The notes beneath the pieces were generated by a model. The model did no database searches and was not told the DNA's origin. It worked only from the letters and a program-made list of their open reading frames with translations. A stretch of 64,000 nucleotides of DNA from Pukyongia sp. (GTDB lineage: Bacteria > Bacteroidota > Bacteroidia > Flavobacteriales > Flavobacteriaceae). Each line of letters begins with the position of its first letter. Position 1 is the first letter of the stretch. The position numbers and the translations under genes were made by a program. The stretch is taken from NCBI GenBank assembly GCA_030148705.1, contig JASBSY010000024.1, positions 21,212 to 85,211 on the forward strand, read 5' to 3'. Of the stretch, positions 3,252-62,631 are shown in pieces.

Positions 3252-3393
3252 TAAAGTTAAAGCGTATTACAATCTTCGAGGCGTACAATAAGTAGCCCTT
3301 GCAGGTTAAGGTAACGATTTGAGGACACGCTTTTGTGATTTCTTTACATGGTTAGATTAACTGTTTTAACTATTTTTATAAAAATTAAGAAGT

Positions 3394-4452
3394 ATGAATA
3401 CGAAGATCACCGGTGTTGGCAGTTATATTCCTACGGGAATCGCACCTAATGACCAATTCAGCGAACATAGTTTCTACAATGAGGACGGTTCTAAATTCGG
3501 GCATGAGAACGCTGTGATTATCGAAAAATTCAAAGCGATCACAGGTATATCCGAACGAAGATACATCCAGGAAGACCTTACCACTTCAGAAATCGCACAT
3601 TTCGCTGCTGAAAAAGCTATAGAAGACGCGGGGATCGACCGCGAACAACTTGATTATATCATCGTTGCCCATAATTACGGGGATGTAAAACACGGTACGC
3701 ATCAAAGTGACACCGTACCCAGCATTGGCTCACGGGTAAAACACCTGCTTAAAATAAAAAATCCCGGTTGTGTAGCGTACGACGTAATGTTTGGTTGTCC
3801 CGGATGGGTGGAAGGGGTTATTCAGTCGCACGCCTTTATAAAAAGCGGCATGGCACAAAAGTGCCTGGTGATTGGTGCAGAAACTTTGTCGCGCGTGATC
3901 GACCAGCACGACAGGGATTCTATGATCTACAGCGATGGTGCCGGAGCCTCTGTGCTTGAGGCGCGAGATGAAGAAGGCGGAATCCTCGCCCATCATACTG
4001 CGACCTATGCTTACGACGAAGCTCATTTTATCTACTTTGGTGAAAGCAATAACCAGGAACTCAATGACGCCCGTCGATATATCAAGATGTACGGCCGCAA
4101 GATCTATGAGTTTGCAATTACGAATGTTCCCGCCGCCATGCAAACCTGTCTTGATAAAAGCGGCTGTGATATTTCGAAAGTTAAGAAGATCTTTATCCAC
4201 CAGGCAAACGAAAAGATGGACGAGGCTATTATAGACCGGTTTTACAAATTATACGATATGAAGCCTCCTACCGATGTGATGCCCATGAGTATAGACAAAT
4301 TGGGGAACAGCAGTGTGGCAACGGTACCAACTCTTTATGATTTGGTATTGCGAAGGGAACTGGATGACCATGAGGTGAATCCGGGAGACGTGGTAATGTT
4401 TGCCAGTGTTGGGGCCGGGATGAACATTAATGCCGTTGTTTACAAAGTATAA
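3394..4452 (+). CDS. fabH: 3-oxoacyl-ACP synthase III (FabH-like)
   Basis: Catalytic motifs FGCPG, HQAN and GNSSVAT. Confidence 0.85.
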   Translation: MNTKITGVGSYIPTGIAPNDQFSEHSFYNEDGSKFGHENAVIIEKFKAITGISERRYIQEDLTTSEIAHFAAEKAIEDAGIDREQLDYIIVAHNYGDVKHGTHQSDTVPSIGSRVKHLLKIKNPGCVAYDVMFGCPGWVEGVIQSHAFIKSGMAQKCLVIGAETLSRVIDQHDRDSMIYSDGAGASVLEARDEEGGILAHHTATYAYDEAHFIYFGESNNQELNDARRYIKMYGRKIYEFAITNVPAAMQTCLDKSGCDISKVKKIFIHQANEKMDEAIIDRFYKLYDMKPPTDVMPMSIDKLGNSSVATVPTLYDLVLRRELDDHEVNPGDVVMFASVGAGMNINAVVYKV

Positions 4453-4976
4453 TGTACGAAGGTAAAATTCCAAAGAAACGTTACAAACACACCTTAAGAT
4501 TTCTGAAGCAATTCGTTTCCGAAGAGGATCGAATCCTCGACCTCGGTGTGGAAAACCCCTTTTCGGAAATTCTTAAACGAGAAGGTTTTAATGTTAGCAA
4601 TACCTCCGGGGAAGACCTCGACCTGGAAACAGCGGCGGTTAAATCGGATGCCTACGATGTGGTAACCGCATTCGAGATCTTTGAACATTTGGTATCTCCT
4701 TTTAATGTCCTTCAGGATATCAAAGCCCGAAAATTGGTTGCTTCCGTACCTCTAAAACTATGGTTTGCCTCTGCTTACCGAAGCAAAACAGACGAATTAG
4801 ACCGTCATTATCACGAGTTTGAAGACTGGCAATTCGACTGGCTTTTGGAAAAATCGGGTTGGAGGATAAAAAAGAGGGAGAAATTTACAAACCCGGTAAA
4901 GAAGGTGGGTATACGCCCCATACTGAGACGATTTACTCCAAGATATTATCTTGTGTATGCTGAACGTATTAAGTGA
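4452..4976 (+). CDS. Class I SAM-dependent methyltransferase
   Basis: ILDLG and YDVVTAFEIFEHL motifs. Confidence 0.75.
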   Translation: MYEGKIPKKRYKHTLRFLKQFVSEEDRILDLGVENPFSEILKREGFNVSNTSGEDLDLETAAVKSDAYDVVTAFEIFEHLVSPFNVLQDIKARKLVASVPLKLWFASAYRSKTDELDRHYHEFEDWQFDWLLEKSGWRIKKREKFTNPVKKVGIRPILRRFTPRYYLVYAERIK

Positions 4977-5812
4977 GATTCTACATTGTAATACCGGCTC
5001 ATAACGAAGAAATGTTTCTGCAGCAAACATTGACTTCCCTTGTTACACAGTCGCTCCCTCCAAAACAAATAATCGTTGTTAACGACAATTCTACAGACGG
5101 CACACAAGAAATTATAGATAACTTCACGGAAGAATATTCCTTTGTTTCCGGAATTAAAACAAACTCGTCGGGTCAACACCTGCCCGGCAGTAAGATTATT
5201 AATGCCTTCTACGCAGGTTTCGAACAATTAGATACCGAATACGACATTATTTGTAAGTTCGATGCCGATCTTATCTTCCCTGAAAATTATCTTGAATTTC
5301 TTTCTACTTTATTCACAAATAATCCCGAATGTGGTATTGCGGGTGGGTTCTGCGCAATACAACAGAGAAAGGCCTGGAAGCTTGAAAACCTGACTTCCAA
5401 AGACCATGTTCGCGGAGCTTTAAAGGCATATCGAAAGGCATGTTTTAACCAAATTGGCGGCTTAAGAAAAAGCATGGGTTGGGACACCGTAGACGAATTA
5501 CTCGCCCGGTATCACGGCTGGGAAGTATGTACAGATGAAAGCCTGCACGTAAAACATTTAAAACCTACAGCCGCCTCTTATCCAGAGCAAGCCGGTCTAA
5601 AACAGGGAGAAGCCTTTAAAAAAATGCGATACGGTTTTATACTAACTATAATTGCCTCGGCTAAACTGTCTTACAAAAAGAAAAACTTTTCGTATTTTCT
5701 GAAATGCATACAGGGGTATTTCCGTTCAGAAAATGCCTATATCGTGACCCCGGACGAAGGTAAGTTCATCAGAAGGTACCGCTGGAAAGGAATTTGGAGT
5801 AAATTCTTCTGA
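4973..5812 (+). CDS. Glycosyltransferase family 2
   Basis: IVIPAHNEE, VVNDNSTDGT and KFDAD motifs. Confidence 0.9.
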   Translation: MRFYIVIPAHNEEMFLQQTLTSLVTQSLPPKQIIVVNDNSTDGTQEIIDNFTEEYSFVSGIKTNSSGQHLPGSKIINAFYAGFEQLDTEYDIICKFDADLIFPENYLEFLSTLFTNNPECGIAGGFCAIQQRKAWKLENLTSKDHVRGALKAYRKACFNQIGGLRKSMGWDTVDELLARYHGWEVCTDESLHVKHLKPTAASYPEQAGLKQGEAFKKMRYGFILTIIASAKLSYKKKNFSYFLKCIQGYFRSENAYIVTPDEGKFIRRYRWKGIWSKFF

Positions 5813-7771: not shown

Positions 7772-8535
7772 TGATACGCGTAGAGAACATACATAAGAGT
7801 TTCGAGGAGAATCAGGTGCTAAAAGGCATAAGCACTGTTTTTGAAAAAGGAAAAACCAGTCTGATCATCGGAGCCAGCGGAAGTGGCAAAACAGTGTTAT
7901 TAAAATGCCTGCTCGGACTTTTTCAGCCGGATGAAGGAACTATTTACTACGAGGATAAGGCAATAGGTATCATGGATGATGAAGAACACCGGGAACTTCG
8001 CGAGGAGATCGGGATGCTATTCCAGGGTGGTGCTTTGTTCGATTCCATGACCATAGAGGAGAACGTCATGTTCCCTTTAAGAATGTTCACCAGGCAGAAA
8101 AAAAGTGAGATGCTGGACCGGGTAAACGAGGTACTGGCGCGGGTAAAACTGGAAAATGTAAACAAACGCTTTCCAGCCGAAATTTCCGGCGGGATGCAAA
8201 AAAGGGTGTCGATTGCCCGGGCAATCGTTAATAAACCGAAATATCTGTTTTGTGATGAACCGAACTCCGGGCTGGATCCCAGAACGGCCACTATTATCGA
8301 CAACCTGATCCAGGAGATTACTCACGAATACAACATGACCACAGTAGTGGTTTCCCACGATATGAATTCGGTTATGGAGATTGGAGAAAGCATAGTGTTG
8401 TTAAAAGACGGGGTTCTTGTTTGGGAAGGCACTAACCAGGACATCTTCTCTACCGACAATAAGGATGTAACCGAATTTGTGTATTCATCCGAATTGTTCA
8501 AAAAGATCCGGGAGGTTCAGCAAAAGGAAGGATAA
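7771..8535 (+). CDS. mlaF: MlaF-family ABC ATPase
   Basis: Walker A GASGSGKT, ISGGMQKRV and CDEPNSGLDP; ATG overlaps the mlaE stop. Confidence 0.9.
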   Translation: MIRVENIHKSFEENQVLKGISTVFEKGKTSLIIGASGSGKTVLLKCLLGLFQPDEGTIYYEDKAIGIMDDEEHRELREEIGMLFQGGALFDSMTIEENVMFPLRMFTRQKKSEMLDRVNEVLARVKLENVNKRFPAEISGGMQKRVSIARAIVNKPKYLFCDEPNSGLDPRTATIIDNLIQEITHEYNMTTVVVSHDMNSVMEIGESIVLLKDGVLVWEGTNQDIFSTDNKDVTEFVYSSELFKKIREVQQKEG

Positions 8536-8601: not shown

Positions 8602-10215
8602 ATGATAAATAAATTACTTTTTTGCCTTGTTTGTTGCTTTAGTGCGATATCTATTGGGCAGGTGTCTTTCACCAACGAAGGGGATCTCTTAGGAAATTAT
8701 CCGGATCATTCTGAAGTAGCCGTTGATATGAATGGCGACTACCTGGACGACTATGTGAGAGTTTCTCAGAATGGTATCGGAATCGATTATTCCAACGGCG
8801 ACGGAACCTTCAATTCAGTTTTCTATACAGTTCCCATCGAAAATACGCCCAACTGGAGTATTGCAGCCGGCGATCTTGATGAAAATGGGTATAACGACCT
8901 TGTTCTTGGTAATGGAAGTCGTGTATCCTTCTTGTACGCTAACGCAAACGGAACTGCATATACCGAAACGCCATTTCCCCAATTCATCTTTTCACAACGG
9001 TCCACTATGGCCGATATAGATAATGATGGTGACTTGGACAGTTTTGTTTGTCACGATGTGGATCTTAGTCATCCCTACCGAAACGATGGAACAGGGACTA
9101 TGTCATTAGATCAGACTTTGATCGTTACTATAGACGCTCCGGGTAATTATGCATCCGTTTGGGTGGATTACGACAATGACGGGGATACGGATATGTATCT
9201 CACCAAATGCCGCCAGGGAGCTGCTCCCGGCGACCCATTTAGGGATAATGCCATGTATACCAACAACGGTGACGGAACCTTTACCGAAAACGCCCAGGAC
9301 ATTAATATGCGTGATAATGCGCAGTCGTGGTCCACGGTTTTCGAAGATTTCGACAATGACGGGGATTTCGATGCCTTTATAGTAAACCACGATTTCCAGA
9401 ACAGGTTTATGCTAAACGACGGTACCGGAATGTTTACCGATATTATCGGAGGTACAGGCATTAATGCAAACGACCTGGGAGCCTGGGAGAATCAGGCAGC
9501 CGATTTCAATAATGACGGCTTTGTCGATATCTTTTCAGAACTTTCGAAAGAATTATATATCAACAACGGAGACCTGACGTTTACCGGAATCGACCTTCCG
9601 TTCGACGAAGGCGCTATTGGCGACCTCAACAACGACGGTTTCCTGGATGTGGTTAATGATGGGATTTTCTGGAGAAACAACGGAAACTCCAACAATTGGG
9701 TGAAAATTGCACTTCAGGGCGTAGAAAGCAACTACAACGGCATCGGCGCGCGTGTGGAAATTTACGGAGACTGGGGAATGCAAATACGGGAGGTTCGTTC
9801 AGGTGAAGGATTCAGTCATATGAACTCGCTTGTGGCGCATTTCGGCCTCGGTACTGCCACAACCATAGACCAGATCGTAATTCACTGGCCCAGCGGCATT
9901 GTGGATGTTATTGAAGATCCCAATATCAACGAACAACACATTTACGTGGAAGGAGAGAATATCCTTGCCGTTACCGATTTCCAAAAGGACGGAATCAAAT
10001 TATTCCCGAACCCCACAGTGGACAACATCAATTTCTCACTCCCGGGATTGGAGAATACAGCTGTACGGGTAATGGATGTAAACGGACGTACGGTTTTGAA
10101 CACCGTAATATCTTCTGAAAATTCAATCGATGTTTCAGGACTGAGAAGTGGTGCGTATTTTGTTCAACTGGAAGTTGAGAAAAAACTCGTAAGCTATAAA
10201 TTCGTTAAGCGATAA
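8602..10215 (+). CDS. FG-GAP/CRTAC1-like (ASPIC/UnbV) protein with T9SS C-terminal domain
   Basis: Repeated DxDNDGDxD motifs, NYNGIGARV..HFGLG, C-terminal LFPNP...YKFVKR. Confidence 0.85.
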   Translation: MINKLLFCLVCCFSAISIGQVSFTNEGDLLGNYPDHSEVAVDMNGDYLDDYVRVSQNGIGIDYSNGDGTFNSVFYTVPIENTPNWSIAAGDLDENGYNDLVLGNGSRVSFLYANANGTAYTETPFPQFIFSQRSTMADIDNDGDLDSFVCHDVDLSHPYRNDGTGTMSLDQTLIVTIDAPGNYASVWVDYDNDGDTDMYLTKCRQGAAPGDPFRDNAMYTNNGDGTFTENAQDINMRDNAQSWSTVFEDFDNDGDFDAFIVNHDFQNRFMLNDGTGMFTDIIGGTGINANDLGAWENQAADFNNDGFVDIFSELSKELYINNGDLTFTGIDLPFDEGAIGDLNNDGFLDVVNDGIFWRNNGNSNNWVKIALQGVESNYNGIGARVEIYGDWGMQIREVRSGEGFSHMNSLVAHFGLGTATTIDQIVIHWPSGIVDVIEDPNINEQHIYVEGENILAVTDFQKDGIKLFPNPTVDNINFSLPGLENTAVRVMDVNGRTVLNTVISSENSIDVSGLRSGAYFVQLEVEKKLVSYKFVKR

Positions 10216-10233
10216 GCATAATTGAACAGATTG

Positions 10234-10263
10234 AAAAAGGCGCTCTAATGGGGTGCCTTTTTT
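10234..10263. terminator. Bidirectional intrinsic terminator
   Basis: AAAAAGGCGCTC-TAAT-GGGGTGCCTTTTTT between convergent genes. Confidence 0.75.
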
Positions 10264-11695
10264 AGTTCATTCTACGCACCAACAGGGTATCGAGGTTCAG
10301 TTTGAACTTCAGCCATTCGGCCAGTTTCTTTTCATTTGATGTCCTTGTCCTGTTACCTATTCGATTGCTCCAGTCCACCTCAAAAACCGATATGGTGTCC
10401 ACCTTGTCGAAGTTGGTTATCAACTTTCGGCTGTAGCCGAAGGAATTCAGATCAGAATAATTAATCTTAACTTCTTTGCTAAGCTCCTGGAAAGGAACTT
10501 CCGAAATTTTCAACTTGGTGATCTCGTCTTCGAGAAACCGGATACGGGTTTCTTTATCGCGTAGTTTTTGTTCATTATTCACATAGAGGTCTTCCAGGAT
10601 TCCGGCTTTTAGCTCGCCCGAGATCTTTTCGGCAAGTTCCCCGGACTGATCAGTCCCCTGATAGATCTTTAACTGAGTATCGGAGAGCTTATCGGTTTCC
10701 TTTATCGTCTCCATCCATTGGGCAATTTGCGACTGAGGAACCTGTCTGCCTATAAGATAGATCTCAATTTCCTTTGTTTTGTAGTCCTGCGTGAATTTAA
10801 CCACTTCGGCACCGTCATAATTAATCACATCCTTTACGAATTCTTTGGTGGAATTCTCAAAAACCTGCTGATCCAAAAGCTTTACGAACAGTATCACACT
10901 TGGCACCATTACAATTAGGGCAATAAGCGATGCAACCCTGGCAATAAACCGGCGACGTTTCGAGTTTACATATCTCACCATAGGAAAACGCAGCAATTTA
11001 GCTACGATAAATGTGGACAGTGCGATAAAGGTAGCATTGATGGAAAACAGGTATATCGCACCCCCGGCATAGTTCAGGTTTCCAATTGCCAGGCCGTAAC
11101 CCACGGTACACAGGGGCGGCATAAGAGCGGTAGCAATAGCGACCCCGAAAATCACACTGGCGATAGTTCCGCTCTTGGTCTTGGCGACAATGAGGGCAAG
11201 GCCGCCAAAAATGGCTACCAGTACATCCAGAATGGTGGGATACGTCCTGGCCAGCAACTCAGGAGTTTCTTCTGTGAGGGGTGATACCTTAAAATAAAAG
11301 AAGGCCGTTAGGACACTAAGACCTATCATTACCCCCAGATTGATCATAGATCTTCGCAGGGTTTCAACATCGTTTATTGCTACAGACATACCTACCCCAA
11401 CGATCGGACCCATCAGTGGTGAGATAAGCATGGCACCAATTACCACGGCTGCGCTACTTACATTCAGTCCAATTGAAGCCACAAAGATCGAGAAAATGAG
11501 GATCCAGGCATTATGTCCTTTAAACGATATATCTTTCTTAACCGCCAGTATGGTAGCATCGTGATCGGTGTCCGCACGTATATCCAGTAGCTCCTTAACG
11601 AACTTCTTTACGCTTTCCCAGGCGGTAAGTCTTATCTTCTCGAATTGCTGTTCCTCCTGTGCCTGTTCTGCAGCACTTTTTTCTTCTTTGTTCAT
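10262..11695 (-). CDS. DUF389-like membrane protein
   Basis: AAVVIGAMLISPLMGPI and GVAIATALMPPL motifs. Confidence 0.8.
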   Translation of the reverse strand: MNKEEKSAAEQAQEEQQFEKIRLTAWESVKKFVKELLDIRADTDHDATILAVKKDISFKGHNAWILIFSIFVASIGLNVSSAAVVIGAMLISPLMGPIVGVGMSVAINDVETLRRSMINLGVMIGLSVLTAFFYFKVSPLTEETPELLARTYPTILDVLVAIFGGLALIVAKTKSGTIASVIFGVAIATALMPPLCTVGYGLAIGNLNYAGGAIYLFSINATFIALSTFIVAKLLRFPMVRYVNSKRRRFIARVASLIALIVMVPSVILFVKLLDQQVFENSTKEFVKDVINYDGAEVVKFTQDYKTKEIEIYLIGRQVPQSQIAQWMETIKETDKLSDTQLKIYQGTDQSGELAEKISGELKAGILEDLYVNNEQKLRDKETRIRFLEDEITKLKISEVPFQELSKEVKINYSDLNSFGYSRKLITNFDKVDTISVFEVDWSNRIGNRTRTSNEKKLAEWLKFKLNLDTLLVRRMN

Positions 11696-18635: not shown

Positions 18636-21600
18636 TTAAAGTATTACCAGTTTTTCAAATTTTTCAATTTGCTGGTCAGTTAACGTAGATTTCACGGTTA
18701 TCTTGTACACATACACGCCTTTTCCTATTTTATCCCCGAAATCATCCTTGCCGTCCCAGACGATATCCCTGGACAGAAATCCATCGGTATTGATTATCTG
18801 GTTTTTAGTCCAAACGATCTTACCGGTAACGGTAAAAACCTGCACCTGTACTTCGAGTGGCTCGAACGGACGGTTGTGATTGAACCAGAATTCGGTGTAG
18901 TTCACAAAGGGATTTGGATAGTTCAGCACTCTGGTAATCTCGAGCTTGTCGTTCCCTGCCACGACAAACTGTATGTCCATGGTTGAAGAGTTATTATAAA
19001 CGTCCCAGGCCTTTAGTGTTAAGGTATGCAGGCCTTCTTCGAGGTCGCGCAAACGGTAGGTTGTCTTTCCACGGGTGTAGTCGTCCACCTCAGCCTGGTA
19101 GTACTCGTTCAGCACTATGGGGTTGGCCTCATCTCCGTCGAGGATAGCAATTATATCATGGCCGATTCCACTGGCGGTATTGATTCCGTTCTCATCTTCG
19201 AGTTTGGCGATAAGAATGGGCGAATCGTTAGTAACACCTCCATTTACGAAGCTCTCGTCGTTCATAAACAGGGAGATCTGAGGGCCGGTATTGTCCTCGG
19301 GGGCATCTTCATTCAACCCACCTATCATCAGGCTTAGGTTAACCCCGGTCTGATCTATTAGTTCTCCGTTCTTCTGGGCATATAAACTGGCGCGCCCTGT
19401 TCCTACCGGGATTTGTATATCTCTGGGAACCACGAATTCGAATTCGAATTTACCATTGGTAACGCTGGCTTGCCCGTTAAAGAGGATTTCCCCAAGGGTT
19501 TTAAAGGTCATTATTAATAAAGGGCCGTTGGGGCCATCAGTAACGCCGTCATTTCCCAGAGTCTGTCGTTGTACATTTTTATCGTATATCTTGCCCTCGA
19601 AAATACCGTTGTAATTGGAAAGTATATTTCCCGACTCATCTACGATCTCCCCTCCTATTTTCACTCTGCTGAGTGCCTTTAAGGTGTCCGTTGCCTGGGC
19701 GATAGGTACATCGTTTAATGTTGTAAGCCTAACACGTTGTTTTGGAAACGCCAGGTGCATGGACGGATCGCCAATAAAGAATACGACATATTTATCACTA
19801 CCGGCTATCCTGTTCCGCGCCAGGCGAAGGGCTTCGGCCGGAGGATTTATATTATTGGTTCCAAACCCGAAGAGTTCAGGAGCGAGTTCTTCGTTATAAT
19901 CCACCCCGGTACTAACCGTTATGGACCGGGTAGTGGTAATCAATGCAATGGCCCCTCCTTGCCTGTTCCAGTATGTAAGCTCTCCTGCCGTGATTCGCTG
20001 AGGGTTGTCGAATTTGGTAAACTCGCAAGTTACTGTGACTATACATGGATATTTGATGTTGCGGAGATCCTGGGCCTGTTCTTTGGTGAAAATAAACTCA
20101 TTGGCCAGTCCGTCTTCCCCACCGTGTCCAAAATAATTTATCACCAGGGCGCCAACTTCTATGGCATTGCTAATAGCCTCATTCACCTCGGGATATCGGT
20201 TGCCTCCTGCTGAAGTTTCCTGCTGATATGCATCACTGTGTATCTTCTTCACATTTACAAAGGGTTTCTGAAAAGTGATCTGATCTCCCAGCTGATCCAG
20301 GTTTACCTGAAGCGAATAATCCCCTCGTGTATCGGCATCATCTGAAATCAATACGAAATAATTTCGCCAGTTACCGTAAGAAGCCTTAGAAGAATAATCG
20401 ATGATCTTATCGACCAGGGAATTCGCCAACCCTACTTCATCGGCGAGTATCCTGCCCATGGCCAGATCGCTCATGTCGCTCAGGTTCATAAGACCATCGC
20501 TGGGATCCATCATCGCATAGAATTCATCCGACATATAAGAAGAAAACGTACTCTGGCTGTCATAGCGGTGATATACCGGTACTATATTATTGTTGTCCGG
20601 GATCCTGTCCTTATAGTCGATAGAAGCATCACCGAACATACATACATATTTAATACGCTTCGAGGGCGAGGAGGCATTATCATATATATACTTAATTAAA
20701 TTCCTGATGGCTGAAATATCCTGCCTGCCGGAACTGAATTCTTCATAGATCTTATCGGTTGTAACCACTTTTACATTCAATCCGCTAACTTCTTCGCGAT
20801 GCCGTGCGAGTTTCAGGGCAGGCTGTATAAGAAAAGGTGCGGTAACGATCAACATATCGATATCCTCGAAATTTCCGGACTGATCGTTAAAAATTGTGCC
20901 TTTGAGGTTTTGATTAGTCACCCGGGCCTGTGCCACTTCTATCGGGGAATAAAAATCGGAAGGATTTAAGGCCACATACTCACGTATTTCCCCCATAAAC
21001 GTTTTAAAGCTAATGGTGTTGGCACTCCCCTCGTTCAGTTTGGATGTAATATTCTGTGGATTTGTAACGTCCCACACCTCAGAGAACTGGGCGCCGTTTG
21101 AAATTCTGAACTCCCCTATTCCCAGTTGTGAGGCGGCATCGTTATACCTAAATGGCAGTTGTAATCCGGCACCGCTTAATTGCCTGAGAGCCCCAATTCG
21201 TATATAGTCGATATACCCTATACTGGACGGATTACCGTTGTTATTATAGGTAAGATCGACGGTAACCGTTTCGCCCCCGGCCGGGATTTCCCCAATATAT
21301 TCTTTGGTATCTAGTAATTTGGGATCGTTGATTGGATCGAATACCACGGGATCCAGGCTGGTACCGTTTACGGAAATCGCCATAGAGGTGGTCACTTCGG
21401 AAGCTGAAGCCAGCCGAATATCGACTTCCATTTGGGATCCACCAATAATATTAGAGAAAGTGAATTCGTAGGATTGTTCACTTTCAATGTCGAAACGGTT
21501 CCCGAACCAACGTCTCCCTACTTTGGCAGGTGAGGTTTCATCTACTTCATGAAATTCGTAATGATTAAATCTATCTATTGTAATGGAAGGCGATCCGCCG

Positions 21601-22481
21601 GGTTCTGTCATTGGCTGGACACGGCGGCCACTGTTGCCGCCTGCGGTAATATAATAATAGGAATCGTCTGAATAAGGGTTAAAATGAGTTAGGTTCTCTT
21701 CATCATAACCTACCGTGCTAATCCCGTAAAAAAGGATAAAATCCTGACTATTGAACACCCCGTCTTCCTCGCCTACAACTTTTATAGCTGTTTCGGGTAT
21801 ATCGTAAAAAACATTACTCTCATTTAAATACGGCAAGGCCTTTCCGCCGTGGCCGTAGATCTTAATAGTTCTGGGGTCTATGCCATCGGTGTTTAATCCT
21901 ATATCGTTCAGAAATTCCTTGTCGAGACGGTATATTCCGGTTTTATCTACTTTGAATTTAAACCAGTCTCCACTAGCCAGTACCGAGTTGCTAATGGGCA
22001 TTCGGCTGTTGTTCCTTGTCCGGGCGCTGTAATCATATGAAATACTGAAGGAAAGTACTTTTTTAAAGATGCCGTTGTCGTTTACGACAGGCGTAATACT
22101 GAGCACACTATAGAGAAGATCCCGCGCTATTGTGCTTCTTAAGGTAAGCACGGGCAACTTTGGAACCGCTTTTTTATCGATCTTGTTCAATTCCTCAGCA
22201 CTCAGATTGCCGTAACTGATACCACTTAATTGCACGCTGCCCTCGTTCACATAACGGCTGTCGAGCCACTGATAGGTGAACATGGTACGATCTCTGGATA
22301 ATTCCAAGTTAAACGAAACATCCTTTTCTTTGGAATCATTCCGGGATATCTCGGTATTCCCGGTGAAGGCGGGTGTGCTGTTCTTTTTACTGTCCCAATC
22401 TATAATAATAGTTCTGCTTTGCGCATTCATCAACAACGGAAAGGCAAATAGAACGATACACAGTACTACTTTTCTCATCAT
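18636..22481 (-). CDS. porU: T9SS sortase PorU (peptidase C25 family)
   Basis: NYFGHGGEDG, TCEF and LNYPNPF CTD; 1281 aa. Confidence 0.92.
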   Translation of the reverse strand: MMRKVVLCIVLFAFPLLMNAQSRTIIIDWDSKKNSTPAFTGNTEISRNDSKEKDVSFNLELSRDRTMFTYQWLDSRYVNEGSVQLSGISYGNLSAEELNKIDKKAVPKLPVLTLRSTIARDLLYSVLSITPVVNDNGIFKKVLSFSISYDYSARTRNNSRMPISNSVLASGDWFKFKVDKTGIYRLDKEFLNDIGLNTDGIDPRTIKIYGHGGKALPYLNESNVFYDIPETAIKVVGEEDGVFNSQDFILFYGISTVGYDEENLTHFNPYSDDSYYYITAGGNSGRRVQPMTEPGGSPSITIDRFNHYEFHEVDETSPAKVGRRWFGNRFDIESEQSYEFTFSNIIGGSQMEVDIRLASASEVTTSMAISVNGTSLDPVVFDPINDPKLLDTKEYIGEIPAGGETVTVDLTYNNNGNPSSIGYIDYIRIGALRQLSGAGLQLPFRYNDAASQLGIGEFRISNGAQFSEVWDVTNPQNITSKLNEGSANTISFKTFMGEIREYVALNPSDFYSPIEVAQARVTNQNLKGTIFNDQSGNFEDIDMLIVTAPFLIQPALKLARHREEVSGLNVKVVTTDKIYEEFSSGRQDISAIRNLIKYIYDNASSPSKRIKYVCMFGDASIDYKDRIPDNNNIVPVYHRYDSQSTFSSYMSDEFYAMMDPSDGLMNLSDMSDLAMGRILADEVGLANSLVDKIIDYSSKASYGNWRNYFVLISDDADTRGDYSLQVNLDQLGDQITFQKPFVNVKKIHSDAYQQETSAGGNRYPEVNEAISNAIEVGALVINYFGHGGEDGLANEFIFTKEQAQDLRNIKYPCIVTVTCEFTKFDNPQRITAGELTYWNRQGGAIALITTTRSITVSTGVDYNEELAPELFGFGTNNINPPAEALRLARNRIAGSDKYVVFFIGDPSMHLAFPKQRVRLTTLNDVPIAQATDTLKALSRVKIGGEIVDESGNILSNYNGIFEGKIYDKNVQRQTLGNDGVTDGPNGPLLIMTFKTLGEILFNGQASVTNGKFEFEFVVPRDIQIPVGTGRASLYAQKNGELIDQTGVNLSLMIGGLNEDAPEDNTGPQISLFMNDESFVNGGVTNDSPILIAKLEDENGINTASGIGHDIIAILDGDEANPIVLNEYYQAEVDDYTRGKTTYRLRDLEEGLHTLTLKAWDVYNNSSTMDIQFVVAGNDKLEITRVLNYPNPFVNYTEFWFNHNRPFEPLEVQVQVFTVTGKIVWTKNQIINTDGFLSRDIVWDGKDDFGDKIGKGVYVYKITVKSTLTDQQIEKFEKLVIL

Positions 22482-28247: not shown

Positions 28248-28322
28248 GGGCGCTTAGCTCAGTTGGTTCAGAGCACTTGGTTTACACCCAAGGGGTCGGG
28301 GGTTCGAATCCCTCAGCGCCCA
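28248..28322 (+). tRNA. tRNA-Val(TAC), prophage integration target
   Basis: Full cloverleaf; anticodon arm CTTGG-TTTACAC-CCAAG. Confidence 0.97.
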
Positions 28323-28324
28323 CA
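28280..28324 (+). repeat. attL core (3' half of tRNA-Val)
   Basis: GTTTACACCCAAGGGGTCGGGGGTTCGAATCCCTCAGCGCCCACA, identical to 62209-62253. Confidence 0.96.
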
Positions 28325-41329: not shown

Positions 41330-43111
41330 ATGAAGCCTACTAAAGAAATGACATCCTCAACCCCATGGACCTACGCTAACAATGTGCGAAGCGGAAAGAT
41401 CGCGTGCGGAAATTTCATAAAATTAGCAATAGAACGCTTTTACCGATGGGTGGATAATGCCGAGGCAGATGGATATTACATCGATCACGATGCCGGGATG
41501 CGCATAATAGAATTCTTTCCTAAACTCATTAATCACACAAAAGGAAGCATGGCCGGGAAGCCCTTTCACCTGGCACCCTTTCAGCAATTCACTTTATACA
41601 ATCTTTTCGCCTGGAAAAATAAAGAAACCGGCCTGCGGCGAATTAAAAAAGTGTACGATAAACGTGCAAAGAAGAACGGAAAATCGGCAGAGATGGCTGG
41701 GCTTAGTTTGTACGTAATGGCGGCCGATAACGAATATGAAGCCGAAGTATATGTGGGTGCCACTAAAGAGGACCAGGCGAAGATCTGTCACAACCAGGCA
41801 AAACAATTTATAGAATCCCCGGTGGCCAACCCGCTTCTTAAAGCGATAGGATTCAGTACCCGGCTCCGGGAAATCCGCTTCGAAGGAACCGCCAGTAAGA
41901 TGATGCCGCTGGGTGGAGATAGTAAAACCCAGGATGGAATCAATTCGCACGTATCCATTATAGACGAATACCACGCGCATAAGGACGATACGGTAAAAGA
42001 AAACCTGGAGAGTAGTAGTATTCAGCGCCGGCAACCCATCACCTATCACATCACCACTGCCGGGTTCAATACCCAGAGCGTGTGTTATAACTATGAGCAG
42101 GTGTGTAAGGATGTATTGCTGGGCACCAAAGAAGAGAACGACAGCTTGTGGATAATGATCCATGAACTCGATGAGGGTGATGATTGGCAGGATCCCGATA
42201 ATTGGATAAAAGCCAACCCCTTACTTCATAACGGATTGAGCCTGAAACGGCTAATGGAAGAGTATAACGATGCTATCCTTCAGCCCAGTAAACAGAATAA
42301 TTTTAAAACAAAGCACCTCAATATGTGGGTGGACGCTCCCGATGTGTTTATCTCGGATGAAGACTGGATGCGTAATTCTGAAAAGGTCCGTATCGAGAAC
42401 TTTATAAAATACGGATGCGAAGGAGCCATCGACCTGAGTACAACCACCGACCTTACCTCGCTGGGGTTTATTTCGTATCCGGACGATGAAGGGGTGCAGG
42501 ATTTGTTGGTGTTTAACTTTTGTCCTAAAGAAACAATCGACCAGCGGTCTAAAGCCGACAGGGTGCCGTACCGCTTTTGGAGCGAACAGAAGTATGCAGA
42601 CTTTATTACAGTTCCTAAAGAACTGGAAGATGAATTCGCGCACCTGCTTAACGATGTACCGCTTTTGGTGGCCACTCCGGGAAATGTGGTGGACTATAAT
42701 GTATTCGAAGATTATGCGGTATCCTATGCAAAACAACTTACAGCAAAGACGGTGAATTACGACCGGCACAACAGCACGCAGCTTATCACTAATATCGAAG
42801 AGGCCGGGGTAAAATGTATGCAGTTTGCGCAAACGATAATCTATTACAGCTATCCTACAAAGGAATTCGAAAAGCTGGCATTAAGCGGGAAATTGAGGCA
42901 TGGCGGAAATCCGGTATTGCGATGGTGCTTATCCGGCTGTGGGATCTACCGGGATCCAAATGAGAATATCCGGCTCAGTAAAAAGCACAGCTCAAAACGC
43001 ATCGATCCGTTAATTGCATCGGTGATGGCGTTGGCCGGGGTGCTCAATGTGGAGGAGCCCGAAAGAAAACAGAGTGTATATAACGACCCAAATAAAGAAT
43101 TCTATGCCTGA
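41330..43111 (+). CDS. terL: Terminase large subunit
   Basis: Walker A KKNGKS, IIDEYHAH, ITTAG, GAIDLS and RIDP motifs. Confidence 0.95.
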   Translation: MKPTKEMTSSTPWTYANNVRSGKIACGNFIKLAIERFYRWVDNAEADGYYIDHDAGMRIIEFFPKLINHTKGSMAGKPFHLAPFQQFTLYNLFAWKNKETGLRRIKKVYDKRAKKNGKSAEMAGLSLYVMAADNEYEAEVYVGATKEDQAKICHNQAKQFIESPVANPLLKAIGFSTRLREIRFEGTASKMMPLGGDSKTQDGINSHVSIIDEYHAHKDDTVKENLESSSIQRRQPITYHITTAGFNTQSVCYNYEQVCKDVLLGTKEENDSLWIMIHELDEGDDWQDPDNWIKANPLLHNGLSLKRLMEEYNDAILQPSKQNNFKTKHLNMWVDAPDVFISDEDWMRNSEKVRIENFIKYGCEGAIDLSTTTDLTSLGFISYPDDEGVQDLLVFNFCPKETIDQRSKADRVPYRFWSEQKYADFITVPKELEDEFAHLLNDVPLLVATPGNVVDYNVFEDYAVSYAKQLTAKTVNYDRHNSTQLITNIEEAGVKCMQFAQTIIYYSYPTKEFEKLALSGKLRHGGNPVLRWCLSGCGIYRDPNENIRLSKKHSSKRIDPLIASVMALAGVLNVEEPERKQSVYNDPNKEFYA

Positions 43112-43352
43112 ATTTAAACCGCTCGATCAGCTTTCGCACACCGAAAAAGTAACCATTGCAATAAAGTTAAAGGACACCAATAGTTTTTTTACGGCCTATT
43201 TTAATTACCTGCCGTATTTTGGCACCTATAGAGAGTGCTTCGAATATCTTAACGAAATTCACCTGGACATCTTCGGCTCGGAAAAGTACTCCAGCTTCGA
43301 CAGTTTCCGGGTATGTATGTATCGCGATCACCAAAATAAACGAACCCTATGA
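43104..43352 (+). CDS. Hypothetical phage protein
   Basis: ATG overlaps the terL stop. Confidence 0.6.
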   Translation: MPEFKPLDQLSHTEKVTIAIKLKDTNSFFTAYFNYLPYFGTYRECFEYLNEIHLDIFGSEKYSSFDSFRVCMYRDHQNKRTL

Positions 43353-43534
43353 AACCAATATTTATAATACTACGCTTTTTTCTTACCCTGGCCGTTTGCT
43401 TTGCCGGGTCCTTCCTGCTCGATGTAGAGATCATCCGGGATAACTGGCTGCGCTATACAGTGGTAGTGGTAGCCATCGCACTATTTTTTACCTTTATGCT
43501 GAAACTAACTATTAATGATATTAAGAAACTATGA
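43349..43534 (+). CDS. Small two-TM protein
   Basis: Hydrophobic, ATGA-coupled. Confidence 0.55.
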   Translation: MKPIFIILRFFLTLAVCFAGSFLLDVEIIRDNWLRYTVVVVAIALFFTFMLKLTINDIKKL

Positions 43535-44034
43535 AACCAACAGAATTAAGAGTAGGGAACTGGGTCCAGCTGTACAGAAGCCCCGAAGAAAACGAAATGT
43601 ATCCACAACAAATAATTTCTATTGAGTTTGATGCTGTTGGGTATATTACTGGTGAGGGGTATATGTTGCGTTTAGATGACGGCTTTTTTATAAACTGTGA
43701 CACAGGTGTGCTGCCCATCCCTTTAACCGAGGACTGGTTATTAAAGTTTGGCTTTACAAAGGGTGAGCAGACAAAAACTAAAGGCAACGGCGGGGATTAT
43801 CAACCCGAAGATGTTTACACTTTATCAACAATTTACAGTCTATACACGGATGATGATCCTGACGGAAATATAAAATATGAACTATCTACATGGCATTGGA
43901 GGGGAGGTGAACCAGAGAACCAGGACGCTTTTTGGTTTTACCATGATAGTTTAATTAGATGTGAATACGTCCACCAATTACAAAACTTATACCACGCTCT
44001 TACAGGAAAGGAACTTATACCTGTTGCTTTATGA
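43531..44034 (+). CDS. Hypothetical phage protein (ELRVGNWV...HQLQNLY type)
   Basis: ORF track; ATGA-coupled. Confidence 0.65.
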   Translation: MKPTELRVGNWVQLYRSPEENEMYPQQIISIEFDAVGYITGEGYMLRLDDGFFINCDTGVLPIPLTEDWLLKFGFTKGEQTKTKGNGGDYQPEDVYTLSTIYSLYTDDDPDGNIKYELSTWHWRGGEPENQDAFWFYHDSLIRCEYVHQLQNLYHALTGKELIPVAL

Positions 44035-44063
44035 TAAAAGCAATTTATTAAACCAGACAAATT

Positions 44064-45710
44064 ATGAAATCAACGTCCGAACAATCGCAATCAGAAACTA
44101 AGCTATGCCCTATGTGCGGTGTTAGTGGGGGTGCTTTTTTAGCCTTTATTAGAATTGATTACGAAGGTATATATGAAGGCAGTATAAAGTTATTTAAAAG
44201 CAAAACAGCAGCAGATAAATATATCAGTGAGTTAAAGAAAGAAAATGGTGGTGATTCGGTGACTTATGATATTGTAGAGTTGCATTTTCACTAACGGACG
44301 AGTGTATGAATAGTTTTATTATTAAAAACCAAAATTTAATAGATATGATTAAAATAACATTTGAGAACCAAACCGTAGCAATTTCTAAAGACTTGCTAAA
44401 TGACGAAATTATTGATATAGACTTTAACGGTGATATGATGGTGCAATTTAAAAAAGAGAACAATAACACATATACTGCTGTAAATGGTATGAATGGTTGG
44501 GGTCAAAATATAGCTTCTGAAATTGCGGGCAAAAAAGCCACAATCTCCGAATAATAAAATTATTTATACACATTGTTACCTGACGAAGTGAACAGTTTAA
44601 AATACTATTTATTATGAAAAAATGGACTAAAGAAGAAGAGCAAGAATTAGTGAGGCTTACTGAAAATGCGTGGGATTGGAATTTCCCAGGTTATGACTGG
44701 GTAAGAACTCTTTTAGAAGTTGATTACCCGAACGGTCGAACCGTTAACGCAATTAGGAAGAAGTACTATAGTATTTTAAATTGCAGGTAACGTGCCCCGT
44801 GTATGCGGACGTAGCCGATTTAAAAACTAATGTTTAACCTATAAAATACAACTTGATATGAAAACTGAAACTTTAAATACTGCCGAAACTAAGGCTATGT
44901 CGTATGACACGGTGTTAGCAACTGGCTTTGGCGAAGATGATTATGTAGAGGGAGTGTTTCTTATTAAAGCAAAAGCAAAGGAAACTTTCTTTAACCGAAA
45001 AAGAAGGCTTGAAGAAATCACTGGCTTTTCAGATGGTTTTTTTGATTCCTACGAAGAGGATGAAGAAGGTGGAGTTTGGAAAGTGATAACAACAGCTTGG
45101 TTTGAAAATGTTGACGAAATCAAAAAAGCTCTGAAAAAGATGGAAAAGTATAACTGGTTATTTCAGTACGATTCATCTATACTTTTTGAGGGCAAAGAAA
45201 TTTACTGTGATGGCAGGTGGCTTGTTTAAGCTTGTTGCTAACGGTTTGGTTATGCTTCCGTTGTGAGTAAAATCCGCAGGATTTTCCGAGTAGGAAGCTA
45301 CCAAACCAAGAATAGAATTAGATTGAATTATTAACAAAAAAGCAATGGAGTATAACCGTTGTTGTAAAACGTTTTTTAGCAATGCCCAAAACAAACACAA
45401 AATTACGATTAAAAGCTATTTTAAAATGGAATAAAGAAACTGTTTATGTTGAACCAATTTTATTTAGTTGGCACGTTGGTATACAATATAAAGTATTAAC
45501 TGGTAATAGTTCTGGTTCTTTATTTTGCAGGAAAAGAAGTGATTTTATTTTTCCTTTACAAACTAAAATAGCAATGCTTATTGTAAAAGCCTATTATTGG
45601 ATTTATGAAGGTGGTTATTGGCAAGGTAGAAGGAAAATAAAAACACGTATAAAAAGGTATAAATTAAGACATAATGAAGGTGATTTACCTTTCTAAATGT
45701 TTTACAACGT
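44064..45710 (+). mobile_element. Integron-like cassette array (attC cluster without integron integrase)
   Basis: attC-like hairpins at 44289-44581, 44784-44920 and 45234-45367; cassette-end complementarity; genes 44064-44294, 44345-44554, 44614-44790, 44858-45229 and 45382-45696. Confidence 0.85.
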
Positions 45711-45803
45711 CGTATATCACTAATAAACGAAACATTGTTTACATAAATAGATTTTAACCCTACCTACATTTACCTCATTCATAGTTGATTGGTTTTAGGT
45801 TAA

Positions 45804-47018
45804 ATGGAAAGTAGTATTACAAGAACGTTAAAGTCTATGGTATCGCTTTCACCGGGCGGAGAGAGCCGAAGCGCGGGGAATGTTTCGCTCTCTTCGCTTT
45901 TTGGTTTTGGTGCATCCGGAACTTCCGTTGTTAATCACGAAACCGCTCTTACCATCCCCGCACTCTTTAACGGGGTTGATCAAATTTCCAACGACATTGC
46001 AAAGCTTCCTAAAGGCGTTTATAGGAAAATAGATAACGGCCGCGAGGAAGTAAAGCACCGCATTAAATACCTTATCAATAAGGAGCCCAACAGGCAGATG
46101 GATGCCTTTACCTTCCATAAGATAATGACTCAGGCCGCAATTCTACGCGGCAACGGCCTGGCCGTGATCCTTCGCCATCCTAATACCGCAGCACTGGAAT
46201 CCCTGGTGTTTATCCACCCGGACGATATTCGGGACATACGGATGATTAAAGGCGATGTGTACTACATCACTAAATACGGTACGTTCACTTCAGACGAAGT
46301 AATTCACATTATGGGTTATACCGATAATGGCTGGCTCGGTAAAAGCGTTATCCGCTATGCAGCCGAAACACTGGGAATCGCTAAATCTGCTCAATCCTTT
46401 GCCGCTTGTAATTTCGATAATAGAGGTATTGGATATGGAGTAGTTCATACCGATAACGAAGTATCTCCTGAAGGTAAACAAAAGATCGAGGCCGGCATCA
46501 ATGCAAAGATGTCTATAAAAGATCGTTTCCGTACAGCTGTCATTGATGAAGGGATGAAGTATGAAGCTATTTCGGTTAGTGCTCAGGACGCGCAGTTAAT
46601 TGAGCAATCAAAGTTTTCTGTGATCGACATTTGCCGCTTCCTTAATATCTCCCCCAGGAAGGTGAAGGATTATACCATTAACAATTATGCTTCGGCCTAC
46701 CAGGATGCCACAGATCATGTAACAGACAGCATTCAGCCCTGGTCTAAAAAATTCGAAAACGAATACGACCGGAAGCTTTTCACCGCCACCGAAAAGGAAG
46801 ATCACTACGTAAAGTTTAATGATAATTACCTGCTTCGCGGGGACCTTACTGCAAAGTCTAATTACTATTTCAGGGCGACAGCCGGCGGATGGATGACAAT
46901 CAATGAGGTACGGGCTATGGAAGAACTCAATCCCATCGATGGAGGGGATGAGCCGCTTATCCCTATGAATATGCAGCAGGTAAAACAACTTGAAAATTCT
47001 ATGCAAGATGAAAAATAA
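45804..47018 (+). CDS. Portal protein, HK97 family
   Basis: PNRQMDAFTF, GNGLAVI, EVIHI, VIDEGMKY and TINEVRAMEELNP motifs. Confidence 0.95.
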   Translation: MESSITRTLKSMVSLSPGGESRSAGNVSLSSLFGFGASGTSVVNHETALTIPALFNGVDQISNDIAKLPKGVYRKIDNGREEVKHRIKYLINKEPNRQMDAFTFHKIMTQAAILRGNGLAVILRHPNTAALESLVFIHPDDIRDIRMIKGDVYYITKYGTFTSDEVIHIMGYTDNGWLGKSVIRYAAETLGIAKSAQSFAACNFDNRGIGYGVVHTDNEVSPEGKQKIEAGINAKMSIKDRFRTAVIDEGMKYEAISVSAQDAQLIEQSKFSVIDICRFLNISPRKVKDYTINNYASAYQDATDHVTDSIQPWSKKFENEYDRKLFTATEKEDHYVKFNDNYLLRGDLTAKSNYYFRATAGGWMTINEVRAMEELNPIDGGDEPLIPMNMQQVKQLENSMQDEK

Positions 47019-52216: not shown

Positions 52217-52289
52217 CGCGGCATGGAGCAGTTGGCAGCTCGCCTGCTTGCTTTGCAGGAGGTCACAGGTTCGAATCCTGTTGCCGCTA
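52217..52289 (+). tRNA. Atypical tRNA-like element: fMet-type body, GCT anticodon, short variable loop
   Basis: Perfect cloverleaf CGCGGCA/TG/GAGC-AGTTGGCA-GCTC/G/CCTGC-TTGCTTT-GCAGG/AGGTC/ACAGG-TTCGAAT-CCTGT/TGCCGCT/A. Confidence 0.9.
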
Positions 52290-52320
52290 CTAGAAGTATA
52301 ATTTAAAAGGGAATTGCCGA

Positions 52321-62529: not shown

Positions 62530-62604
62530 GGGTCATTAACTCAGTTGGTTCAGAGTGTTACCTTGACAGGGTAGAAGTCACTGGTTCGAATCCAGTATGA
62601 CCCA
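62530..62604 (+). tRNA. tRNA-Val(GAC)
   Basis: Cloverleaf with anticodon arm TTACC-TTGACAG-GGTAG; TAATTTTG promoter box at 62511-62518. Confidence 0.96.
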
Positions 62605-62631
62605 CATCAAATAGAATTCCGGTGCGACAGC

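Follow-up and report, generated by a model that had tools for sequence, protein, structure and literature searches.

Between the genes for the large terminase (terL, 41330–43111; Pfam TerL_ATPase and TerL_nuclease) and the portal protein (45804–47018; Pfam Phage_portal, E 4e-78) of a prophage in Pukyongia sp., a marine member of the Flavobacteriaceae, lies an array of small genes and hairpin sites, which is the subject of this analysis. Coordinates refer to the window, that is, the whole 64,000-nucleotide (nt) stretch of contig JASBSY010000024.1 that was analyzed, and all features of this region are on its + strand. The array (44035–45745) is an orphan that holds three complete cassettes and truncated ends; all three of its hairpin sites fall inside 1.1 kb, and searches with Pfam, phmmer, and NCBIfam found no Xer/IntI-like recombinase gene in the 64 kb. 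The GC content of the array region is 32.8%, versus 40–46% in the flanks. An earlier note on this DNA had described the region as a series of integron cassettes, more precisely a cluster of attC sites lacking integron-integrases (CALIN). Our reading of the sequence agrees with that note on the position of the array within the prophage, on four pairs of reverse-complementary cores and the stop codons near them, on three complete hairpins, and on the lack of IntI in the window; it departs from the note on the enzyme, the folding strand, and the boundaries of the cassettes.

The four core pairs are GTTAGTG (44121) with CACTAAC (44289), 7 nt long; GTTACCTG (44575) with CAGGTAAC (44784); GTTAGCAAC (44914) with GTTGCTAAC (45234); and GTTGTAAAAC (45361) with GTTTTACAAC (45699). 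We refer to the left, GTTA-containing members as R' and to the right, TAAC-containing members as R''. Their exact complementarity in cassettes 1, 2, and 3 is 8, 9, and 10 nt, respectively, and the stop codons fall within the ...AAC core or 9–10 nt 5' of it. With boundaries drawn at AA|C, the array opens with cassette 0 (44035–44294), a 5'-truncated unit composed of open reading frame (ORF) 2 (44064–44294, 76 amino acids, aa) and an R' remnant, GTTAGTG (44121–44127), that is preceded by the L'-like CTATGTGCGGT. This unit ends in CACTAA|C, and its leader, MKSTSEQSQSETKLCPMCGV, resembles the leaders encoded in the loops of a long class of hairpins (101–140 nt). Its hairpin lacks the 5' arm, and stem searches found no stem upstream; given that the left half-site at 44121 lies inside an ORF without a detectable 5' arm, we interpret it as a truncated remnant.

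Cassette 1 (44295–44790) begins with hairpin site 1 (44292–44578; TAAC-GGACGA-GTGTATG...ORF3...TATACAC-ATT-GTTA), a 285-nt hairpin that has arms at approximately 44296–44323 and 44550–44574 and contains a complete ORF in its loop (ORF3, 44306–44554, 82 aa), and continues with R' GTTACCTG, ORF4 (44614–44790, 58 aa), and the R'' CAGGTAA|C. Cassette 2 (44791–45241) is composed of hairpin site 2 (44788–44917), a 130-nt member of the long class whose loop contains the start codon of the following gene (44858), R' GTTAGCAAC, the orphan ORF5 (44858–45229, 123 aa), and R'' GTTGCTAA|C. Cassette 3 (45242–45707) has hairpin site 3 (45239–45364), also of the long class and folding mainly via a strong internal stem at approximately 45243–45307, followed by R' GTTGTAAAAC, the orphan ORF6 (45382–45696, 104 aa), and R'' GTTTTACAA|C. 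The array terminates in a degenerate remnant (45705–45745; CAAC-GTCGTATATCAC...CATT-GTTTAC). Half-sites had been proposed at both ends of the array; core remnants are present there, but the left one lacks its 5' arm and the right one is not a foldable site.

Cores of this length are uninformative on their own, since inverted pairs of 7–8-mers are common by chance (113 in 2.5 kb). That reverse-complementary matches of 7–8 nt are frequent in DNA of 34% GC, and that many low-scoring matches of a generic AAC...GTT stem finder are scattered across the window, favors a reading of the array as inverted repeats that arose by chance in the AT-rich DNA between genes, or as ordinary terminators between phage "moron" genes. 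Complementarity around the ORFs reaches 15–23 nt: 22 nt at 91% for I2 (the arms of hairpin 1), 16 nt at 94% for I5 (an extension of the R'/R'' pair of cassette 1), 15 nt at 87% for I11 (the R'/R'' pair of cassette 2), and 23 nt at 78% for I3. The sites were also compared with a covariance model, R2, composed of 50 hairpins from independent viral loci that had been found via their recombinase protein and not via window sequences. On both strands of the 64 kb, R2 gives only three matches, all on the + strand and all at the hairpins described above: 44788–44917 (61.1 bits, E 4.6e-10), 45239–45364 (38 bits, E 2.4e-5), and 44292–44426, the 5' half of hairpin 1 (27.5 bits, E 3e-3). A lack of covariance-model support had been named beforehand as an outcome that would speak against the hairpins; our own model supports all three. 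The generic stem finder, which has a sizeable background below a score of 28, gives only two non-artefactual scores of at least 30 in the 64 kb, at 44289–44581 (hairpin 1, score 36) and 44785–44920 (hairpin 2, score 30), and scores hairpin 3 at background level. Its top score falls in host DNA on a near-perfect palindrome (4999–5048; aatgtttctgcagcaaacatt and its complement, with overlapping arms) that is unrelated to the array. No credible Rfam family was found in the window or in five arrays. Intrinsic terminators were rejected given that the stems are not followed by a T run. The confinement of calibrated model matches to the three sites, strong covariation across hundreds of sites, and the occurrence of one unit in an unrelated phage at 94.6% identity refute the chance or terminator reading, whose remaining probability we consider negligible.

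The hairpin family and an associated recombinase

The window hairpins belong to a family that forms arrays in >100 viral contigs, as well as in cultured phages of Polaribacter and Cellulophaga. Among the loci fetched for comparison, L033–L112 are viral contigs and L131–L140 are Freya phages. The unit that contains ORF4 (44558–44793) is shared with Polaribacter phage P12002L, where it lies in a replication/methylase module; a search for window cassettes in other contexts, which the earlier note had recommended, thus finds this unit reassorted. The identity between the window and P12002L stops at CAGGTAACGT (...GGTAACGT), and the arms of hairpin 1 also occur in P12002L, around another ORF. An 18-mer of hairpin 1, CTAACGGACGAGTGTATG, is present exactly in 26 IMG/VR viral contigs, in most of which its partner arm, TATACACATTGTT, follows 88–296 nt downstream; many of these loci hold arrays, and an array that follows the same R'/R'' rule is found in L027.

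The anatomy of the sites is constant across samples of 99 and then 278 unique sites and consists of x6-TAAC, a 5' spacer (5–6 nt), an imperfect stem with its loop and return arm, a 3' spacer (1–3 nt), and GTTA-x6. Exact R'/R'' complementarity of at least 7 nt is found in 39/68 and 124/206 adjacent pairs (57–60%), versus 5.5% in controls composed of non-adjacent site pairs, and the length of the complementarity has a sharp peak at exactly 10 nt. The stems are highly variable in sequence, and the three window hairpins share short cores only. In the stem alignment, 93% of cells are paired, a percentage inflated by selection because the hairpins were chosen by a finder that requires pairing, and 180 cells show double changes, compared with 56 ± 6 in shuffled and 25–43 in slid controls. 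The window sites have the properties of the family: matches to R2, an R'/R'' box for each cassette, G·T mismatches on the sense strand, and co-orientation with the genes. The complementary 10-nt ends fit a protein-sized duplex box that would be complete only in a circular cassette. The structured sites and complementary cassette ends that had been read as the signature of insertion from circles stand, whereas their attribution to a classical IntI/attC integron is not supported.

Some R boxes recur as frames around different contents. Identical 12-nt R' and R'' sequences frame unrelated ORFs in L022 (reverse strand, 10201–10418) and in the window (44914–45242), and the frame of the window ORF6 cassette (45361–45708) recurs as a 29-nt unit without an ORF in L027 (688–716). 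These shared and empty frames may bear on how cassettes are generated. The L022 unit and window cassette 2 also share the end of a hairpin-encoded leader (..DTVLATG), with unrelated ORF bodies.

In L005, L007, and L022, the arrays adjoin a gene for a tyrosine recombinase of 265–277 aa. This protein belongs to the Xer/IntI clade: it scores 175–198 bits against NCBIfam XerA_Arch (cut-off 220) and 140–161 bits against the NCBIfam integron integrase TIGR02249 (cut-off 265), and its matches in the PDB are XerA (2e-36) and VchIntIA (1e-31), the latter in two stretches. Given that the VchIntIA alignment breaks where the IntI insertion lies, the phage recombinase appears to lack this insertion. A search of IMG/VR with the recombinase protein alone yielded 80 loci, 38 of which have 6 kb on both sides; these fully flanked loci contain 209 hairpins upstream of the recombinase gene and 11 downstream, and 257/278 hairpins are co-oriented with the gene. 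In 40 loci, the x6-TAAC of the last cassette is located approximately 45–55 nt before the recombinase start codon and is followed by a conserved TATTATATATA-type sequence that has no hairpin and that we term attI-like. A motif scan found no attI-like motif near the window array, and the terminal remnant at 45705–45745 is not this conserved sequence. The arrangement of array, attI-like sequence, and recombinase gene also occurs in Bacteroidota genome contigs (Tenacibaculum, Fermentimonas, and others), including those of cultured Tenacibaculum soleae and Lacinutrix iliipiscaria, and cultured flavophages carry homologs of the recombinase. A metagenome-assembled genome of Tenacibaculum sp. (L118) encodes a recombinase of greater divergence (44% identity); its hairpins (8149–8273 and 10689–10815) lie downstream of that gene on the strand opposite to it, which may represent a variant architecture.

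Folding strand and natural breakpoints

Mismatches in the stems are strongly asymmetric when read on the gene-sense strand: a G of the 5' arm faces a T of the 3' arm 136 times, versus 10 times for the reverse, and in a second set 380 versus 24 times. G·T mismatches on the sense strand are also counted as 141 versus 15. One stem position (columns 24/81 of alignment A3) is G·T in 28/33 hairpins of the short class, and in window hairpins 1 and 2 both arm mismatches are G(5')·T(3'). This bias implies that the sense strand folds better, either as single-stranded DNA or as RNA. For cassette 2, the predicted DNA fold of the sense strand in its circle form is −18.6 kcal/mol (z −3.7), compared with −15.4 for the antisense strand and −12.7 for the array form. 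Both the mismatch pattern and the advantage of approximately 3 kcal/mol predicted for the sense fold of cassette 2 argue, as indirect evidence from sequence, against folding of the bottom strand, as the earlier note had assumed.

The hairpins also contain parts of the genes themselves. Among the hairpins of the long class, 109/195 hold an ATG from which the reading frame crosses the 3' arm and R' and runs on into the next gene, as exemplified in the window by ORF5. In some cases the loop encloses an entire ORF, with the ATG of GTGTATG as its start codon; ORF3 is one of these. Given that such genes start in the hairpin loop, a cassette boundary at G|TT would split them. The loops of the long class (alignment A4) have conserved motifs, GATTTGAA... 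and ...ATAGAAGCACAAA..., and supply the downstream proteins with N-terminal leaders that are hydrophilic and about 20 aa long. An additional role of the hairpins at the RNA level, as an RNase III-type processing stalk, is possible. Translational bypassing was rejected for lack of matching take-off and landing codons.

Differences among related phages reveal where the cassettes are separated in nature. The ten isolates of Polaribacter phage Freya (L131–L140; MT732463–MT732472) have genomes of 43,978–48,920 bp, a size range that Bartlau et al. give without explaining its cause. The sizes of the sibling isolates 1, 2, 6, 8, and 10 differ only by 0 to approximately 12 small-gene cassettes located directly upstream of the gene annotated "integrase." The sequence of Freya_1 is ...TTGTTTACAAC|ACCCCTATAAC... 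approximately 45 nt before this recombinase gene, and Freya_2, 6, 8, and 10 have 863, 2237, 4061, and 4963 nt, respectively, inserted at exactly this junction; the differences among the five genomes are whole hairpin-bounded units, and every junction is ...AAC|. A 960-nt cassette with TAAC on both sides is located in the middle of the array in L049 and in the attI-proximal position in L064. The breakpoints in L022/L023 and L007/L069 end at CTAACG, and the AAC core is where left ends of mosaic blocks are concentrated (116/448). Breakage at AAC means that each hairpin goes with the gene downstream of it, which is the mirror image of classical cassettes. The G|TT boundary proposed in the earlier note was dropped given its conflict with these natural indels and permutations and with the integrity of the genes.

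These results bear on the possibility that the array is a classical CALIN, with ordinary attC sites that fold on the bottom strand, exchange at G|TT by a bacterial IntI, and cassettes in which the gene precedes its attC. The array does have the R''-L''...L'-R' layout, the AAC/GTT cores, and the complementary cassette ends that such a reading calls for, and a CALIN was called with HattCI/IntegronFinder in P12002L, the same phage that shares the window ORF4 unit at 94.6% identity (Qi, Rajabal, Ghaly, Tetu, and Gillings 2023, Front Microbiol 14:1091391, PMC9892861). In that study, two P12002L sites of divergent directions were treated as classical attCs and assayed with IntI1, which recombined one site at G|TTAGGC (Qi et al. 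2023, PMC9892861). P12002L_attC1, which was predicted by HattCI only, gave no verified IntI1 recombinant (Qi et al. 2023, PMC9892861). This site (TGCTAAC-GGCTAC-GGCTAAACGG...CCGTTTTAGCC-ATT-GTTAGGCG) has the architecture of the window's hairpin family and is the only tested site that does, and its result counts against the classical reading. The classical reading also conflicts with natural breakpoints at AAC rather than GTT, with genes that start within the preceding hairpin loop, and with mismatches that favor the sense strand. The enzyme linked to such arrays elsewhere, a 265-aa recombinase without the IntI insertion whose score does not reach the integron-integrase cut-off, argues against IntI as the partner of these sites. 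In comparisons of homologous gene (B) units, the same upstream hairpin with a different downstream hairpin was seen twice and the reverse never, as counted at relaxed thresholds with few informative cases, and strict thresholds gave collinear pairs only. We consider a classical CALIN very improbable.

A candidate integron-like system of Bacteroidota phages

We regard it as likely that the window array belongs to an integron-like recombination system of Bacteroidota phages. In such a system, a cassette would be composed, in order, of a hairpin site, a 10-nt R' box (GTTA and 6 variable nt), a small gene, and the complementary R'' (6 variable nt and TAAC). On excision as a circle, pairing of the two R boxes would add a 10-bp stem at the base of the hairpin, and the gene-sense strand would then carry a fully folded site. 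In complete systems, the array lies upstream of, and co-oriented with, the gene for the Xer/IntI-like recombinase of about 265 aa and ends at ...TAAC|TATTATATATA...; cassettes are acquired, dropped, or moved to new positions through exchange within the AAC core or immediately behind it. The geometry relative to the recombinase is that of a classical integron read on the bottom strand, except that the cassette genes point towards the recombinase and each hairpin lies 5' of its gene. The anatomy, the covariation, the strand bias, the association with the recombinase, and the natural breakpoints at AAC are seen in the sequences; from them we infer that the recombinase catalyzes this exchange and posit that it does so on folded single-stranded DNA with circle intermediates. 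The probable source of the window array is a cassette-bearing phage that recombined with this one, and we suppose this to have been ordinary recombination given that the left end of the array lies inside a hairpin loop; it would now be mobile only with a recombinase supplied in trans. More broadly, we lean on balance toward the view that Bacteroidota phages carry their own integron analog, with a compact recombinase, an attI-like site, and sense-strand sites located 5' of the genes, some of which encode an N-terminal leader or enclose a whole ORF, that this analog collects and reshuffles small early or counter-defense genes, orphan DNA methyltransferases among them, and that the window array is a copy stranded between terL and portal. 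In such an analog, the empty and shared R-box frames may show how cassettes are born.

Several points weigh against this explanation. The recombinase and the attI-like site are both absent from the window. Catalysis by the recombinase is deduced from its association with the arrays, and the protein is annotated plainly as "integrase" in cultured phages, where it could serve lysogeny. Selection on RNA structure would account for the G·T bias just as well, and the selection of hairpins by pairing enters the percentage of paired stem cells given above. R'' sites share [AC]TTG...AAC, so that short-homology recombination could give the breakpoints seen in Freya and in L049/L064. Hairpin units alone often have different neighbors on both sides (at least 62 blocks, and the 284-nt unit of L022/L023), and gene (B) units with both flanking hairpins different are found in 27 cases; these swapped partners indicate that exchange is not confined to AAC. 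The identical R-box frames with unrelated ORFs or none are likewise unexplained by a single crossover point. A model of the short hairpin class (R1) gives no significant match in the window, which we attribute to the window sites being of the long class or enclosing an ORF.

Some of these observations could be understood if the hairpins were regulatory elements of mRNA within cassettes that homologous recombination reshuffles, as with the PeSL elements of T4-type phages, and if the recombinase were a lysogeny integrase or dimer resolvase. The hairpins would then present start codons in an A-rich loop, or act in processing or stability, and their conserved arms would merely supply homology. Mismatches compatible with G·U on the transcribed strand, start codons and conserved leaders in the loops, the varying partners of both hairpin units and B units, breakpoints within sequence common to all sites, and the annotation of the recombinase as an integrase in temperate-type flavophages are all consistent with this alternative. 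However, it leaves unexplained why the 6 variable nt are complementary and why the complementarity has a sharp 10-bp optimum at the flanks of 30–1400 nt, why polar, co-oriented arrays end 45 nt before a recombinase of the Xer/IntI clade in 38/38 fully flanked loci, and why a cassette relocated to exactly the attI-like site (L049/L064); in addition, the stems are too diverse for long homology. We judge regulatory hairpins with homologous shuffling to be unlikely.

The PeSL cassettes of T4-type phages, which Arbiol et al. are said to have described in 2010, reportedly consist of stem-loop elements that flank small unknown ORFs in hyperplastic phage regions. They are said to have been proposed to shuffle ORFs, possibly via circles, with near-identical repeats of early promoter and stem-loop as substrates of homologous recombination. 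Near-identical flanking repeats of this type were not found in the window, where short cores are all that the hairpins have in common, or in the family, with its variable stems. The phage arrays differ from PeSLs in the covariation of their stems, in the complementarity of their cassette ends, and in their link to a tyrosine recombinase and a terminal site. Two kinds of mobile hairpin elements were also discarded. A REPIN/RAYT system was rejected because the three copies in 64 kb are not near-identical; no HUH gene was noticed, although none was specifically scanned for. Ends of the IS200/IS605 type were dropped because no transposase was seen, although transposases and HUH genes were not specifically scanned for.

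Integrons are regarded as bacterial devices, and reports from phages are limited to scattered attC predictions. The phage arrays resemble integrons in being promoter-poor series of small-gene cassettes, with imperfect hairpins that have AAC/GTT cores and two stems separated by an unpaired spacer; their sites are variable in sequence and conserved in structure, and their complementary ends would produce a complete site in the circle. As in integrons, the array abuts a conserved site beside the gene for a recombinase of the Xer/IntI clade, the sense strand of that gene is the predicted folding strand, and a cassette can move to the recombinase-proximal position. In contrast to integrons, the recombinase has about 265 aa, lacks the IntI insertion, and scores below the NCBIfam integron-integrase cut-offs; the favored folding strand of the sites appears to be the gene-sense strand; the breakpoints are at AAC, and the hairpin is 5' of the gene and may hold the gene start or a whole ORF; the R box has 10 bp, and near-invariant G·T mismatches take the place of extrahelical bases. 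The system is, moreover, carried in genomes of Bacteroidota phages and is known here from sequence alone. The recombinase also resembles the Xer-like integron integrases of archaea and others (Ghaly et al. 2022, Sci Adv; NCBIfam NF040815), in that its best NCBIfam and PDB matches are of the XerA type, in the same Xer/IntI clade, but it scores below the family cut-off (175–198 vs 220 bits), and host range, sites, and polarity differ.

Our survey of the literature, which is incomplete in coverage, found no description of an Xer-like recombinase with hairpin arrays in phages or of the attI-like site, strand bias, or AAC boundary of such arrays. The only precedent found is a partial one, namely the CALIN call in P12002L (Qi et al. 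2023), for which no dedicated recombinase, attI-like site, strand bias, or AAC boundary was reported (PMC9892861). If the recombinase acts on the sites, the phages of a major marine and gut phylum would possess an independent cassette platform of mirror polarity, the hypervariable small-gene regions of Bacteroidota phages would have a mechanistic explanation, and the Freya isolates, which differ by 0–12 cassettes, would place a culturable system at hand. The phage sites would also provide a second, divergent example for the choice of strand by structure-specific tyrosine recombinases, and the empty and shared frames may help answer the question of cassette origin. Annotation tools designed around classical attC and IntI would overlook arrays of this kind or draw their boundaries wrongly.

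Cargo and prophage context

The window cassettes offer few clues to the function of their cargo. ORF4 has a weak Myb/SANT-like match and falls in phrog_37969, the PHROG matches of the window ORFs are weak or are to families of unassigned function, PADLOC gives no matches among the array ORFs, and ORFs 2, 3, 5, and 6 have no homolog in any fetched locus. Arrays in the viral contigs L033–L112 carry four classes of orphan DNA methyltransferases (D12, N6_N4, C5, and MT-A70), as well as a calcineurin-like phosphoesterase, a dual-specificity phosphatase, and DUF5662. The methyltransferase and phosphatase cargo of these arrays fits a role in counter-defense, a fit that is also noted by Qi et al. (2023, PMC9892861).

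The interval between terL and the array contains two conserved backbone ORFs (43047–43352 and 43349–43534), whose tblastn homologs occupy the terL–portal interval of the relatives L028, L029, L030, and L032, and a 167-aa accessory ORF (43531–44034; phrog_10066, function unassigned) that adjoins the array, lies in no recognizable cassette, and has distant homologs in two recombinase-seeded viral loci only. The small-ORF content of this interval differs in relatives at approximately 70% TerL identity, which also carry the two backbone ORFs; the TerL query found no relative among the genome contigs. One relative, L030, has seven small ORFs between these genes (2444–4840), including an HNH_3 endonuclease. 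The backbone ORF pair is located beside portal in L030 and beside terL in the window, which suggests that the interval between terL and portal is a general hotspot. In L032 (72% TerL identity), a gene for a 277-aa Xer/IntI-like recombinase (698–1531) abuts the start of terL, in the position expected for the small terminase, and no hairpin sites were detected at that locus.

The prophage, which encloses terL and portal, starts near a tRNA-Val gene (28248–28323) and an adjacent gene for a 401-aa phage integrase (28449–29654, + strand; Pfam Phage_int_SAM_5 and Phage_integrase). This integrase is the sole tyrosine recombinase of the window and is outside the array-linked Xer/IntI-like family, with an NCBIfam score of just 25.8 bits to XerA_Arch and the same outcome in phmmer. 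A second tRNA-Val gene (62530–62605) is located near the likely right end of the prophage, and a tRNA-Ser(gct) gene (52217–52290) lies within its structural module. A PorU sortase gene in the window (18636–22481) is approximately 70% identical to the PorU genes of Aureitalea and Constantimarinum.

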